Assembly: GCF_020169415.1 (NCBI RefSeq)
Contig: NZ_JAIULG010000017.1
Location: forward strand, 53,034-77,033
Reading direction: 5' to 3'
DNA: 24,000 bases
From: Tsukamurella sp. M9C
GTDB taxonomy: Bacteria > Actinomycetota > Actinomycetes > Mycobacteriales > Mycobacteriaceae
A program made the translations under genes and the position numbers. Each line of letters begins with the position of its first letter. Position 1 is the stretch's first letter. Below are positions 13,441 to 16,586 of the stretch, piece after piece. Below the pieces are notes generated by a model. That model made no database searches, had not been told where the DNA came from, and worked only from the letters and a program-made list of their open reading frames with translations.

Positions 13441-14802
13441 CTATTCGCCGTCGTTCGCCGCCTCGCCGCCGGTGCCGGGCTCGGCTTCGCCGGTCGAACC
13501 CGCGCTGCCGGACGGCTGCGAGTCGCCACTCCCTGTGGGCGCGGTCGGCTCCTGCGTCGTCGGCGCAGTCGGCTCCGCGGGCTTCGTCCGGTCGGGGCGG
13601 TCGAACAGGTCACGGACGGCGCCGATGAGATCGCGCCCCGTCGCCCCGTCGCCCGTCCCCGAGCCACCGGTTCCCGGGGTCGGCACAGTGGAGCCGGCCT
13701 GCGACGAGCCCTCAACCTCGGGTGCGCCCGAGCCTGAGCCGCTGAGTGTCTTGACGAGAGGCTTCGCGGGCTTGGCCCCCGTCTCGGCCGCAACGCCACC
13801 GGCCGCCGAGCGGTCGGCCGCGGCGTCGGGCAGGGTCGGCACGCCGGGAACGACGGCGCCGATCGCCTTCAGGTCGTACTCGAGGATCTGCCCCGGCAGC
13901 GCGACCACGTTCCCGGCCAGCTCGGTGAGGTAGCCCTGGATCGCCTGCGCCGCGCCGGCGAAGTCGCCCCGGAGCGCCTTCTTGTTCACGGCGTCACTCA
14001 CCGCCTGGAAGATGTTCGCACTCAGCGGGACGCCGTCCTTCTCCTTCGTCTGCCCCTCCTTGAGCGGCTTACCGTCCGCACCGACGTACTCGCCGGCGTC
14101 GTTCGTCTTGTAGCCGACGGTGACGAACGCGGCGAGCCTGGCCTGGTCGAAGTTCTTCAACGGGATCCCCGCGACGGTCAGCAGGCTCCCGACGGTCGGC
14201 AGCGCGAACGGGCTCGCATCAGCCGGGGACGCGGCCGCCCGAACCGCGGTCGCGGTCGGGGCCGGCTTGGGGAAGAAAGCCCCCACGTTCAGGTTGATCA
14301 ACGCCGCCGGGAGGGCGATCACCTTCGAGGCGAGCTGGGCCAGGTAGTTCTGGATCTGCGCCGCGGCGGCAGCGAAGTCACCCTTCAGCGCCACCTTGTT
14401 CACCGAATCACTGATCGCCTGGAAGATGTTCACGTTGACCGCCACGCGATTGTCGGCGACGTACTTCGCGTAGTCCGCGTCGGACTCGCCCACCGCCTTC
14501 TCCCGAAGCGGCTTATCGTTCTTGTCCACCAACTTGCCGGCGGCGTTCGTCTTGTAGCCCGTGAAGACGAACGCGGACGTCCGAATCAGCTCGAAGTTGC
14601 TGAAGGGAAGCGCGAGCACCTTGAGCGGGTCGGGCGCGAACGACTCCAGAGCGGGCAGCTCCGGCAACGCGGCGGCCTGCTGCGCGGAGACGACGGCCGC
14701 GGGCGCGGGCGCAGAGGTGGCGGCGACGGCGTTCGCGCCGACCGGGGTCGCGATGATCGCGGCCGCGGTCACCGCGGCGGCCAGCGAAGTGGTGCGCTTC
14801 AT
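13441..14802 (-). CDS. Secreted two-module repeat protein 1 with a disordered G/S/T/P/E-rich tail; unknown family
   Basis: The 453-aa ORF has the SD GAGGGGA upstream. The Sec signal is MKRTTSLAAAVTAAAIIATPVGANAVA. It contains two copies of a module of about 110 aa. Module 1 spans about aa 59-172 (LKVLALPFSNFELIRTSAFVFTGYKTNAAGKLVDKNDKPL...NIFQAISDSVNKVALKGDFAAAAAQIQNYLAQLASKVIALPAALINL). Module 2 spans about aa 206-311 (LLTVAGIPLKNFDQARLAAFVTVGYKTNDAGEYVGADGKPL...NIFQAVSDAVNKKALRGDFAGAAQAIQGYLTELAGNVVALPGQILEY). A low-complexity tail of about 130 aa follows. Confidence 0.8.
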   Translation of the reverse strand: MKRTTSLAAAVTAAAIIATPVGANAVAATSAPAPAAVVSAQQAAALPELPALESFAPDPLKVLALPFSNFELIRTSAFVFTGYKTNAAGKLVDKNDKPLREKAVGESDADYAKYVADNRVAVNVNIFQAISDSVNKVALKGDFAAAAAQIQNYLAQLASKVIALPAALINLNVGAFFPKPAPTATAVRAAASPADASPFALPTVGSLLTVAGIPLKNFDQARLAAFVTVGYKTNDAGEYVGADGKPLKEGQTKEKDGVPLSANIFQAVSDAVNKKALRGDFAGAAQAIQGYLTELAGNVVALPGQILEYDLKAIGAVVPGVPTLPDAAADRSAAGGVAAETGAKPAKPLVKTLSGSGSGAPEVEGSSQAGSTVPTPGTGGSGTGDGATGRDLIGAVRDLFDRPDRTKPAEPTAPTTQEPTAPTGSGDSQPSGSAGSTGEAEPGTGGEAANDGE

Positions 14803-15135
14803 TGTTGTTAGTTCCCCTCAGTTCAATCTCAGGCGATTCCTACCTGTTCCTGAAAAATAGCACCGCACATGGGGGAAGAAATACGAAGTACGGAAAGTCG
14901 GTTGAGCTATCCATTACCAAGCAATAAAAAGAGTTCTGGCCCCTGGGAGCGATACCCACGGTGGCGGCTTTCGACATTGCACCAGCAATTCGCCGACGGT
15001 TCCGAAACCGGACAAGGAGACACCGACGTGACTCCTGCGCGAACGACTCTGTCGCGCGTCGGTGCACGTCATTCGGCTGACGAGTGACGCCCCGCCACGC
15101 GTATCCGTACCTAGCGCGCTCCGGACTACAGAAAA

Positions 15136-15176
15136 GCGCATCGCGCGCCCCGGGAAGCCCGAGACGCGCGATGCGC
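15136..15176 (-). terminator. Intrinsic terminator downstream of secreted protein 2
   Basis: GCGCATCGCGCG (15136-15147) pairs with CGCGCGATGCGC (15165-15176). On the minus strand the stem is followed by TTTTC (the complement of 15131-15135). It lies 18 nt after the stop at 15195-15197. Confidence 0.75.
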
Positions 15177-15194
15177 TGATGTGAAGCGGAGCGA

Positions 15195-16586
15195 CTACTT
15201 TGCCGTCGAGCCTGCCGATGAATCCGATGCGCTCGACCCCTCCGAGGCCGAGGAGTCCGACGCGCTCGAGTCGCTGGTGGGCTTCGACTCCGCGGCCGGC
15301 TTCGACTCTGCAGCGGGCTTCGCATCCGCCGTCGGCTTCGACTCCGCAGCGGGCTTCGCATCCGCCGTCGGCTTCGAGTCGACAGTGGGCTTCGACTCCT
15401 CGACGACCGGCTTGGTCTCCGTCGGCGTCGACTCGACCGGCTTGGTCACCGTCGGCTCGGCGGCCGGCGTGGTCACCGTCGGGGTCGACTCGACCGGCTT
15501 GGTCACCGTCGGCTCCGCCGCGGGCTTCGAGGTCTCGGAGACCACCGGCTTGGCGGTCTCCACCGCGGGCTTGGCGGCCTCGGCGGTCGGCTTGGTCGTC
15601 TCCACCACCGGCTTCTGCGCGACGGCCGTCTTGTCGGCGACGGACGTCACGAGGGACTCGTCGGTGGTAGCGACCGAGGTCCGCGACACCGCATCCGACG
15701 ATGTGGTGGTCGGCGCGGCGACGCCCGGGGTCAGCGAGGCGATCAGCTTGTCGATCTTGTCCGACGCCGCCTTGATCTGCGCGCCCGGGAACTCGACGAT
15801 CGTGGTCACCGACTTGGACACGGCGTCGACCACGAGGTTGACGGCATCGCCGAACTTGCCCTGGAAGATCGCCTGGGGGACCGAGGTGAGCAGGCCGTAG
15901 AAGTTCTTGTAGATCGACAGTGCCGCCTGGCCGCCGGCGTACGCGGTCGCGACCGGGATGCCCAGGACGTCGAGCCCTGCGGTGATCGGGTTCGGCTTGG
16001 CGGCGGTGTCGGACGAGACCGTGGCCGCAGCCTTGGGCGCCTCGGCCGCCTTCGGGCCCGCGCCGGTGGCGATCCAGGTCAGCGAGTCCGTGACCGCCTT
16101 CTGGAACAGGCTCGGGACCGAGCCGAACTCGCCCTTGAAGATGGCCTGCGGCACGGAGGTGAGCATCTTGTACCAGATGGTGTAGACGCCCTGGCTGGTC
16201 TGCAGGACGCGGTAGACCGCCTGCACCGGAAGCCCGGCGAGGTTGAGGAGATCGGTCACCGACTTCGGCACCGTGGGCAGCTCGACAGCAGCCTGCGAGC
16301 TCGCAGCGGAAGCAGCAGCGGTGGCGCCCTGAACGGCCTCGTCGGTGACGACGACGAAGGTGCCGAGCGCGGCCGGAACGGCGGCGGCCGCATTCGCAAC
16401 CGCGGGAGCCGCGGCGATGTTCTTGAGCACCGCGGCGGGGGTCGCGATCGTGCTCGCGACGGTGGCGGCCGGGGTGGCGGTGGGTGCGGAGGTCGCGGCG
16501 ACGGCGCCGGAGACCGGTGCGATGGCGACGGCGGCGGCAGCCACGATCGCGGTGACGGAGGTGAGGGAGGTGGCCTTCGTGTTCAT
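15195..16586 (-). CDS. Secreted two-module repeat protein 2 with a long K/P/T/E/S-rich tandem-repeat tail; paralogue of protein 1
   Basis: This is the frame of track ORF 15195-16715. The start is ATG 16586 (MNTKATSL...), with AAGGAAG about 9 nt upstream. The signal is MNTKATSLTSVTAIVAAAAVAIAPVSGAVA, and the mature N-terminus ATSAP is the same as in protein 1. The two modules are LLNLAGLPVQAVYRVLQTSQGVYTIWYKMLTSVPQAIFKGEFGSVPSLFQKAVTDSL and LDVLGIPVATAYAGGQAALSIYKNFYGLLTSVPQAIFQGKFGDAVNLVVDAVSKSV. The tail of about 180 aa is built from KP-containing repeats. Confidence 0.8.
   Translation of the reverse strand: MNTKATSLTSVTAIVAAAAVAIAPVSGAVAATSAPTATPAATVASTIATPAAVLKNIAAAPAVANAAAAVPAALGTFVVVTDEAVQGATAAASAASSQAAVELPTVPKSVTDLLNLAGLPVQAVYRVLQTSQGVYTIWYKMLTSVPQAIFKGEFGSVPSLFQKAVTDSLTWIATGAGPKAAEAPKAAATVSSDTAAKPNPITAGLDVLGIPVATAYAGGQAALSIYKNFYGLLTSVPQAIFQGKFGDAVNLVVDAVSKSVTTIVEFPGAQIKAASDKIDKLIASLTPGVAAPTTTSSDAVSRTSVATTDESLVTSVADKTAVAQKPVVETTKPTAEAAKPAVETAKPVVSETSKPAAEPTVTKPVESTPTVTTPAAEPTVTKPVESTPTETKPVVEESKPTVDSKPTADAKPAAESKPTADAKPAAESKPAAESKPTSDSSASDSSASEGSSASDSSAGSTAK
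15280..15534. repeat. Coding tandem repeats in the 3' third of the secreted protein 2 gene
   Basis: There are seven 18-bp units GGCTTCGANTC-N7 from 15280 to about 15398. They include a 36-bp duplication (15298-15333 vs 15334-15369, one mismatch). On the minus strand these encode the hexapeptides KPAAES and KPTADA. A 57-bp unit is then repeated twice (about 15421-15477 and 15478-15534), encoding PAAEPTVTKPVESTPT(V/E)T(T/K). Confidence 0.85.

Follow-up and report, generated by a model that had tools for sequence, protein, structure and literature searches.

Two neighboring genes of Tsukamurella sp. M9C, lodged among genes for MspA-type porins, encode proteins that combine a Sec-type leader, a repeated module, and a long low-complexity tail. 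Both lie in the 24,000-nucleotide (nt) stretch of DNA analyzed here (NZ_JAIULG010000017.1, 53,034-77,033, forward strand; hereafter the window, whose numbering we use throughout), and both were taken from its list of open reading frames: P2 (463 amino acids, aa) occupies 15195-16586 on the minus strand, with an ATG start and an AAGGAAG ribosome-binding site, and P1 (453 aa) occupies 13441-14802 on the same strand, with GAGGGGA as its upstream ribosome-binding site. The three flanking porin genes, also on the minus strand, match PF09203 with scores of 89-146 bits: MspA-a, a divergent a-type porin of 219 aa (17507-18166, E 3.8e-25); MspA-b, 232 aa, upstream of P2 (16739-17437, E 1.1e-42); and MspA-c, a b-type porin of 233 aa downstream of P1 (12528-13229, E 1.8e-42; start codon read). 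Further upstream, still on the minus strand, are the response regulator (22377-23063) and histidine kinase (20837-22372) of an MprAB-like two-component system, an HtrA/PepD-like protease gene (19460-20764), a MoaB-like gene (18837-19463), and a small open reading frame between the last of these and MspA-a; beyond MspA-c come the MscL gene, on the plus strand, and then a PrsW protease gene. We take this locus to be the mprA-mprB-pepD-moaB2 ... mscL neighborhood of mycobacteria, with mspC of M. smegmatis presumably near pepD/moaB2 in the same interval. That mspC is msmeg_5483 (PMC13098993). GC content across the window is actinobacterial (65-76%), and the nearest relatives of the window genes are all from Tsukamurella, T. 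ocularis being 85-94% identical in DNA over the locus.

P1 and P2 are genuine genes under purifying selection. Compared with three species (T. ocularis, T. pseudospumae, and Tsukamurella sp. 1534), the ratio of nonsynonymous to synonymous substitution rates is 0.21-0.40 for P1 and 0.29-0.40 for P2, within the range of the adjacent MspA and pepD genes; orthologs of P1 were found only in Tsukamurella, and those of P2 in loci L001, L002, and L003.

A preliminary description of this stretch had portrayed P1 and P2 as secreted proteins sharing the mature N-terminus ATSAP, each with a duplicated module and a low-complexity tail and neither with a transmembrane segment or lipobox; this anatomy stands, and the motifs quoted for it (NIFQAISDSVNKVALKGDFA, NIFQAVSDAVNKKALRGDFA, VPQAIFKGEFGSV, and VPQAIFQGKFGDAV) are all present in the translations. 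Specifically, i) both putative Sec-type leaders finish in the octapeptide AVAATSAP, where the A-x-A rule would place cleavage between AVA and ATSAP; the P1 leader (aa 1-27, 14722-14802, minus strand like all features of the two genes given below), MKR followed by an A/T/I-rich core, contains the sole hydrophobic window of P1, and the P2 leader (aa 1-30, 16497-16586) contains the highest hydropathy window in P2; ii) P1 module A (aa 46-178, 14269-14667) is 44% identical to module B (aa 196-318, 13849-14217), and P2 module A (aa 100-176, 16059-16289) 42% identical to module B (aa 194-285, 15732-16007), so that with E-values of 5e-33 and 1e-16, respectively, internal duplication is far above chance; iii) the insert of about 40 aa that had been noted in each P1 module (aa ~82-124 and ~228-262) is real, and the compact P2 modules lack it; iv) the P1 tail (aa 319-453, 13444-13848) is disordered, acidic, and G/A/T/P/S-rich with a net charge of -9, and the P2 tail (aa 286-463, 15198-15731) is disordered and 45% S/T/P with a net charge of -7, composition and Tandem Repeats Finder confirming both the KP-type hexapeptides (an 18-nt, 6-aa repeat, 6.7 copies, 15280-15399) and the 19-aa repeats (57 nt, 2.1 copies, 15399-15515) reported for it; and v) outside the leaders there are no hydrophobic 19-residue windows, and neither protein contains cysteine, hence no transmembrane segment and no lipobox. 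Among surface anchors, LPxTG, lipobox, and a hydrophobic C-terminus were not found in either protein.

Each protein also carries a small conserved motif outside its modules. The P1 tail includes the amphipathic GRDLIGAVRDLFDRPD (aa 388-404, 13591-13641; hydrophobic moment 0.58), an island 76-94% conserved against 34-70% for the remainder of the tail; the Ala-rich region between the leader and modules of P2 includes LGTFVVVTDEAVQ (aa 74-86, 16329-16367), which is 77-100% conserved against 47-83% in its surroundings and occurs in the relatives P0016, P0017, and P0019 as well. Between species the modules are 78-96% identical in P2 (module A 83-92%) and 62-97% in P1 (module B 79-95% among close Tsukamurella orthologs and 36% in the most divergent, sp. 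1534), and the tails 26-70% in P1 and 33-67% in P2. In two Tsukamurella strains (P0004 and P0006) the insert of module B (aligned to 13849-14217 of the window) has been swapped for one of module-A type (SDAEYADFVAKN...), which suggests recombination between modules of one gene.

The two proteins had also been called paralogs, a claim that survives only as distant homology. Compared directly, the two fall short of significance (BLASTP, E 0.15), and a better score with the composition correction switched off was dismissed as tail-driven; a profile of P1 only gives P2 10 bits, a profile of P2 only gives P1 6 bits, and hhalign of the shallow module profiles yields P 1e-4 in global and 4e-3 in local mode. 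With E-values computed at a database size of Z = 1.84e9, the P1 profile matches the intermediates P0015 (E 1e-23) and P0018 (5e-3); the P2 profile matches P0018 (1.6e-4), P0021 (1.4e-3), and P0015 (1.8e-3); and the hMid profile, built from the intermediates alone without P1 and P2, matches P1 (E 2.6e-9) and the P2-like P0019 (E 1.4e-6). The joint module alignment is coherent, running from L-x-V-x-G-[IL]-P through a helix, the variable insert, a second helix, the G-x-[FW] turn, a third helix, and L-P-x-x-[IL] to a final helix. Because the steps through P0015, P0018, and P0021 are significant, we accept on sequence grounds that P1 and P2 are homologous, with an old divergence rather than a recent duplication behind them.

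How far the family extends was established by an exhaustive HMMER search, at E <= 1e-3, of 1.84 billion cluster representatives with a profile of the P1 and P2 modules. It returned 16 proteins only: members from Tsukamurella (P0009, P0014-P0017, P0019, and P0023), members from metagenomes or assemblies of raw reads (P0013, P0018, P0020, P0021, and P0024), and, as the remaining matches, two fragments and the tape-measure-like P0022. P0020 is the intact counterpart of a Mycolicibacterium komossense gene, a GH16 gene on the P0021 contig shares at least 90% identity with its Mycolicibacterium llatzerense counterpart, and the members that can be placed belong to Tsukamurella and Mycolicibacterium only. 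Judged by these sequences, the family is small and unnamed, spanning Tsukamurella, a few Mycolicibacterium, and at least one uncultured organism. Word-indexed protein searching proved unreliable for this purpose, the P2 core giving no matches despite orthologs of 78% identity and the family profile giving just two fragments; a metagenome contig match (L012) was rejected as spurious, low-GC, and non-coding. A 63-aa sequence (P0026) on a 233-nt contig labeled Mycobacterium kansasii is 95% identical to module A of Tsukamurella P1 and is probably Tsukamurella contamination rather than an M. kansasii gene.

Family members have two, three, or four modules. P1 and P2 each have two that match the family hidden Markov model (83.8 and 92.8 bits for modules A and B of P1, 93.2 and 86.0 bits for those of P2), scores that are partly circular, both proteins being in the seed of this A3 profile, and for which hMid provides the independent support. 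A Sec-type leader and a low-complexity C-terminal tail are found in P1, P2, and the full-length P0013-P0021 and P0024, with the proviso that P0015 as called lacks the leader, possibly owing to the choice of start codon. The tails are diverse: G/S/T/P/E-rich, made of KP hexapeptides, made of GGTTG repeats (P0015), Ala/Lys/Glu-rich and coiled-coil-like (P0023), or Ser/Asp/Lys-rich. Those of the non-Tsukamurella members P0018, P0021, and P0024 contain one to three copies of Y-x-G-[KR]-H-[RA] (instances are YKGRHRLDD, YQGRHRADE, TYGKHALQD, and SYVGKHRAGKD), a motif not present in P1 or P2. Near-invariant residues across the family are structural only: Leu, the Pro of G-[IL]-P, and the turn Gly.

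No database gives this family a name, as the preliminary description had anticipated. Pfam and NCBIfam returned only sub-threshold noise for P1 and P2 (DUF7822, DUF3659, and DUF2523), and Pfam at E <= 10 no recurring family among ten relatives; PDB sequence searches with two profiles and with P0017 gave nothing below E 0.02; and in RefSeq the members are annotated as hypothetical proteins. The module family is new, in that it is unnamed in databases and unmentioned in the literature found; it belongs to a general kind well known from Actinobacteria, that of exported envelope proteins built of modules and ending in a low-complexity tail. Apa/ModD and Erp of the Mycobacteriales resemble P1 and P2 in having a Sec leader, a small folded part, and long Pro/Thr/Ala-rich or repeat regions, in their (for P1 and P2 presumed) envelope or culture-filtrate location, and in their fast-evolving repeats, but P1 and P2 show no sequence similarity to them, have acidic tails and no hydrophobic C-terminal anchor, and are peculiar in their duplicated hairpin module and their embedding in an MspA cluster. 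TonB and TolA likewise have spacer-like segments comparable to the KP-type repeats of P2 and the Ala/Lys/Glu-rich helical tail of P0023; in P1 and P2, however, the arrangement is the opposite one, the spacer following the folded part, the N-terminus bears an A-x-A motif at which the leader looks cleavable, and there is no membrane anchor. We rejected a TonB/TolA relationship, Pfam finding no TonB_C or TolA domain and the C-terminus being of low complexity. A phage tape-measure lead was dropped as well: the three matches, though independent, are weak and below curated thresholds (P0022, E 3.5e-4; PF09718, E 0.029; 9f4b_BH, E 0.17), neither tblastn against 50,697 phage records nor Foldseek against BFVD found any, and the likeness probably reflects convergent helix-LPG-helix-G-helix periodicity and composition. 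P0022 itself, an 894-aa protein of helical repeats of about 44 aa (ELPGKIWDAI...QKIAEWGSNL), is the sole match of the exhaustive search outside the family.

Structure prediction adds secondary structure and little more. For full-length P1, AlphaFold2 with eight orthologs gave a mean predicted local distance difference test (pLDDT) of 35.5, which is unusable; the inserts alone reach 60-74, as small beta-hairpins, the tail stays below 50, and a short helix is predicted at aa 392-400, within the GRDLIGAVRDLFDRPD motif. The two-module core of P2, modeled from an 18-row family alignment, is all-helical at a pLDDT of 54.6 and a predicted template modeling score of 0.39, values for which we rely on secondary structure alone; each module is predicted to consist of a short helix followed by a long hairpin turning at the near-invariant Gly. 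Foldseek searches found only generic helical bundles (best E 0.2 in the PDB and 0.14 in BFVD). The P1 inserts show a pattern-level likeness (GYKTNDAGEYVGADGKPL) to the hairpin repeat G-[YW]-x4-5-G-x-[YW]-[VY]-x3-G-x-x-[LM], which we regard as a lead only; choline- or cell-wall-binding repeats of the CW_binding_1 type were rejected, none of six inserts matching in Pfam at E <= 10.

The preliminary description had linked the two proteins to porins by position, and this link recurs: the MspA cluster encloses a family member in 7/7 informative Tsukamurella loci (the window, L001, L002, L003, L007, L008, and L009), and in M. komossense a member stands beside an MspA pair. In Tsukamurella the interval from MoaB to MscL holds a pair of a-type and b-type MspA genes, one or two family genes, and then one to three MspA genes. 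P2 and P1 are both present in the window, T. ocularis, T. pseudospumae GCA_001575195, and sp. 1534; in GCA_001575205 (P0017) and T. tyrosinosolvens (P0019) one divergent P2-like gene takes their place; and Tsukamurella sp. NPDC003166 has the three-module gene P0015. When L003 (8208-11600) is aligned with L007 (7001-10400), the flanks are 87-94% identical and collinear through MspA-a and MspA-b, collinearity stops at the start of the family gene (215 nt left, at 77%), and it returns at the last MspA gene. Because it breaks and resumes at these points, the family genes, as read from these alignments, occupy a hypervariable, replaceable cassette bounded by conserved porin genes; such fast turnover fits envelope-exposed interaction proteins. 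In three species, and not in the window, a DUF222 (PF02720) gene of 538 aa lies between the porin cluster and mscL (L003 12263-13879, L007 11083-12699, and L009 10417-12033); we take DUF222 to be an HNH-endonuclease, REP13E12-like family, and the gene may mark a recombination hot spot.

In M. komossense (L004), two MspA genes, a Pro-rich gene of 239 aa, and a four-module family gene follow one another in that order, at another site on the chromosome. Its MspA genes are only 22-31% identical to those of Tsukamurella, so recent transfer of the cassette from Tsukamurella does not explain the adjacency. The family gene of M. komossense (L004 9726-11771) is spread over three frames by two frameshifts, its relative P0020 being intact; it is a pseudogene or else, being rich in repeats, was misassembled; the metagenomic P0020 has the same Pro-rich neighbor upstream. 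This Pro-rich, secreted 239-aa protein (L004 8749-9468; L013 2-391) shows 86% conservation in the metagenomic relative and draws no match from Pfam; the start of its gene overlaps the stop of the second MspA gene, to which it looks translationally coupled.

Within the window, P1, P2, and the porin genes have transcription signals of their own. P2 is followed by a strong intrinsic-terminator-like hairpin with a 20-base-pair stem and a T-run (15135-15177, minus strand), and the P1 stop by a GC-rich terminator-like hairpin, GGATCGCCCGCCC..GGGCGGGCGATCC then TTTG (13394-13432, minus strand), with a similar element after MspA-a; the P2-P1 intergenic region (14803-15194; 392 nt, 58% GC, with an A+T-rich stretch before P1) probably holds the P1 promoter and 5′ untranslated region. 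With a GC-rich hairpin and a long upstream region for each gene, these same-orientation neighbors form no obvious operon. A shared-motif search among five upstream regions found no regulator box; what it did find was a ribosome-binding-site context, GAGGGGAAC, common to MspA-a and P1, and the duplicated 3′ hairpin. Rfam matched one tRNA gene in the whole window (2458-2530, minus strand) and no riboswitch in the long intergenic regions.

The recurrent porin adjacency in two genera leads us to favor, tentatively, a reading in which P1 and P2 would be lineage-specific, non-enzymatic, Sec-exported envelope adaptors or spacers that work with the MspA cluster. The preliminary description had already placed them outside the cytoplasm and seen no catalytic motif, and the leaders, the lack of an anchor, and the structural nature of the near-invariant residues are in keeping with that; proteins that appear exported and unanchored, that are free of cysteine and of conserved polar catalytic residues, and that join hairpin repeats to an acidic chain have the anatomy of binding or adaptor proteins, not that of an enzyme or channel. 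A typical member consists of two to four modules of about 75-130 aa, each predicted to be a short helix ending in L-x-V-x-G-[IL]-P, a long hairpin with a G-x-[FW] turn, and usually an L-P-x-x-[IL] helix, followed by a fast-diverging, acidic, S/T/P/G/A-rich tail with one or two small conserved motifs. The hairpin modules may be binding units that dock on an envelope partner, either the co-encoded MspA-type porins or the adjacent mycomembrane or arabinogalactan; the extended tail, probably O-glycosylated, may serve as a spacer or brush that presents a short docking motif. P1 and P2 would then be accessories of the porin cluster and no core porin subunits; as MspA porins themselves they were rejected, with no match to PF09203 at E <= 1. 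What the analysis shows is that the genes are real, how the proteins are built, how far the family reaches, and that it neighbors porin genes; export, location, binding, and any effect on porins are inferred.

Several observations weigh against envelope adaptors of the MspA cluster. i) The supposed interaction of P1 and P2 with MspA rests on gene neighborhood; ii) the structure models are of low confidence (pLDDT 35 and 55), and no fold match points to a binding function; iii) the uncultured organism with P0018 (L005/L014; three contigs) has no MspA gene within 7-10 kb on each side; iv) the M. llatzerense-like contig with P0021 (L011) has none in the ~1 kb upstream and 2.8 kb downstream available; v) the exhaustive search found no member in most MspA-bearing genera (M. 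smegmatis, Rhodococcus, Nocardia, Gordonia); vi) all that brings these genes together could be a hot spot for envelope genes between moaB2 and mscL, as the DUF222 insertion in three species would illustrate; and vii) co-transcription of P1, P2, and the porin genes is unlikely, their signals pointing to separate transcription units. As for co-occurrence with porin genes, which the preliminary description had made a test of functional linkage, every assignable member comes from an MspA-bearing genus, two contexts show no MspA gene in the sequence available, and in most genera with MspA the family went undetected. Homologs of PF09203 number more than 3000, from more than 150 species (PMC10868439). 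A family undetected in most MspA-bearing genera, at the sensitivity of HMMER, cannot be a general porin component.

Some of these same observations suit the main rival reading, in which P1 and P2 would be surface-coat or released mucin-like glycoproteins, functionally unconnected with the porins and forming a layer for adhesion, hydrophobicity, or phage shielding; the modules would bind one another or the outer face of the mycomembrane, the tails would form a glycosylated brush, and the genomic position would be that of a variable island of envelope genes. The tails are S/T/P-rich, acidic, repetitive, and fast-evolving, whether as KP hexapeptides, as GGTTG in P0015, or as Ala/Lys/Glu in P0023; the genes are replaced like cassettes between related species, some members have no MspA neighbors, and each gene has its own transcription signals. 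We nevertheless consider a coat somewhat unlikely: no route of display or anchor is visible (no LPxTG, lipobox, or hydrophobic C-terminus), and adjacency to MspA is found at two unrelated chromosomal sites, in two genera, next to very divergent porins.

A stronger version of the adaptor reading, which we think quite unlikely, would make the hairpin proteins dedicated MspA partners, the first accessory subunits to dock at the periplasmic base or vestibule of the octamer, there tethering it to the arabinogalactan-peptidoglycan or assisting or gating its insertion. If true, it would offer an entry point to the assembly and anchoring of mycomembrane porins.

Placement among porins, beside an MprAB-like two-component system and an HtrA/PepD-like protease, also recalls periplasmic ATP-independent holdases of the Spy/CpxP or Skp kind, with paired hairpins cradling unfolded MspA porin. 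P1 and P2 share with Spy and CpxP the paired hairpins (two or more predicted hairpin modules per chain), an apparently extracytoplasmic setting, and the nearby envelope-stress system and protease, and Bam homologs are absent in mycobacteria, where the insertion mechanism is unknown (PMC10868439 and PMC13643282). On the other hand, P1 and P2 are much larger and confined to a narrow range of lineages, and most bacteria with MspA lack the family; chaperones do not usually have tails of 130-180 aa or diverge so rapidly; the proximity to a stress locus is probably inherited synteny; and there are no matches to the LTXXQ/Spy/CpxP or Skp families, the nearest string, LTSVPQ, misfitting L-T-x-x-Q and Spy/CpxP membership being rejected in Pfam. 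Holdase chaperones are thus improbable.

Being encoded together with porins could also mean that P1 and P2 form pores of their own, as alpha-helical, mycomembrane-inserting channels like corynebacterial PorB and PorC, which are also small Sec-exported helical units encoded with or near other porin genes in a host with a mycolate outer membrane. The modules, Sec-exported and helical at about 80 aa, are rich in aromatic residues (8-10% F/W/Y) and moderately amphipathic (hydrophobic moment 0.25-0.57), but they lack membrane-spanning hydrophobicity, the top hydropathy windows all lying in the leaders. P1 and P2 further differ from PorB and PorC in their several modules, their long acidic tails, which are foreign to known helical porins, and their lack of sequence similarity; with no Pfam match to PorB or porin families and no Cys, hence no disulfide, we rejected PorB/PorC membership and regard a channel as very improbable.

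Hardly credible, finally, is a divergent PE/PPE type, which the predicted helical hairpin and the automatic UniRef names of P0005, P0017, and P0025 ("PE-PPE domain-containing", "PPE family domain-containing", and "PE family protein") might suggest, but which is contradicted by Sec-type leaders where PE/PPE proteins are leaderless type VII (ESX) substrates, by the absence of any PE or PPE motif near the N-termini of P1 and P2, by the failure of PF00934, PF00823, and PF08237 to match P1 and P2 at E <= 1 or ten relatives, those with such names included, at E <= 10, and by the lack of PE/PPE chains in the PDB sequence and Foldseek searches. PE/PPE membership, which the preliminary description had named as an outcome that would remove the novelty, is therefore rejected at sequence level and the UniRef names are unsupported. 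The likeness that remains is a predicted build of paired long helical hairpins and confinement to the Mycobacteriales; some PE/PPE pairs are reported to act in mycomembrane transport.

The delivery of MspA porins to the mycolic-acid outer membrane, their insertion, and their retention there are unexplained, and these bacteria have no Bam-like machinery (PMC10868439). Very few leads to porin-associated factors have come from genomes; an apparently secreted family whose genes lie among those for porins in two genera is one, and as such a specific and cheap target for deletion and pull-down. We wish to stress that the family is tiny and absent from models such as M. smegmatis, so that any role would be lineage-specific. 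Whatever the function, a new module family without a Pfam entry has been added, and the hypervariable cassette in an otherwise conserved porin locus bears on surface biology in Tsukamurella, which forms foam and is an opportunistic pathogen.

A few further features of the locus deserve mention. The housekeeping locus mprAB-pepD-moaB-MspA-mscL is also present on the 413-kb "plasmid 23" of T. tyrosinosolvens NCTC13231 (L015, NZ_LR134465.1), which matches the chromosomal contig L008 at 100% identity along the 12.6 kb that were compared. This "plasmid" is probably a mislabeled chromosome fragment, and since it carries the same chromosomal locus we rejected it as evidence of mobility. In the gap between MspA-c and mscL, the window has a 101-aa open reading frame (12044-12349, minus strand) with an N-terminal hydrophobic leader containing a lipobox-like LAVCGG and no Pfam match; other species have differing small open reading frames at this position. 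The 3′ flanks of P1 (13394-13432) and MspA-a (17438-17506) both contain CTCCGACCGAC and a GCCCGCCCTG..GGGCGGGC hairpin and are both followed by a b-type MspA gene, a likeness suggesting that MspA-b was duplicated along with the hairpin upstream of it to give MspA-c. More generally, MspA genes of Tsukamurella are of two classes, ~219 aa long in the a-type and ~232 aa in the b-type, with ~30% identity between classes (MspA-a is 32-34% identical to MspA-b and MspA-c), and are arranged as a-b pairs in clusters of three to five genes, depending on the species. These a/b pairs resemble the two-subunit porins reported in Nocardia and Rhodococcus ruber (PMC9233653).

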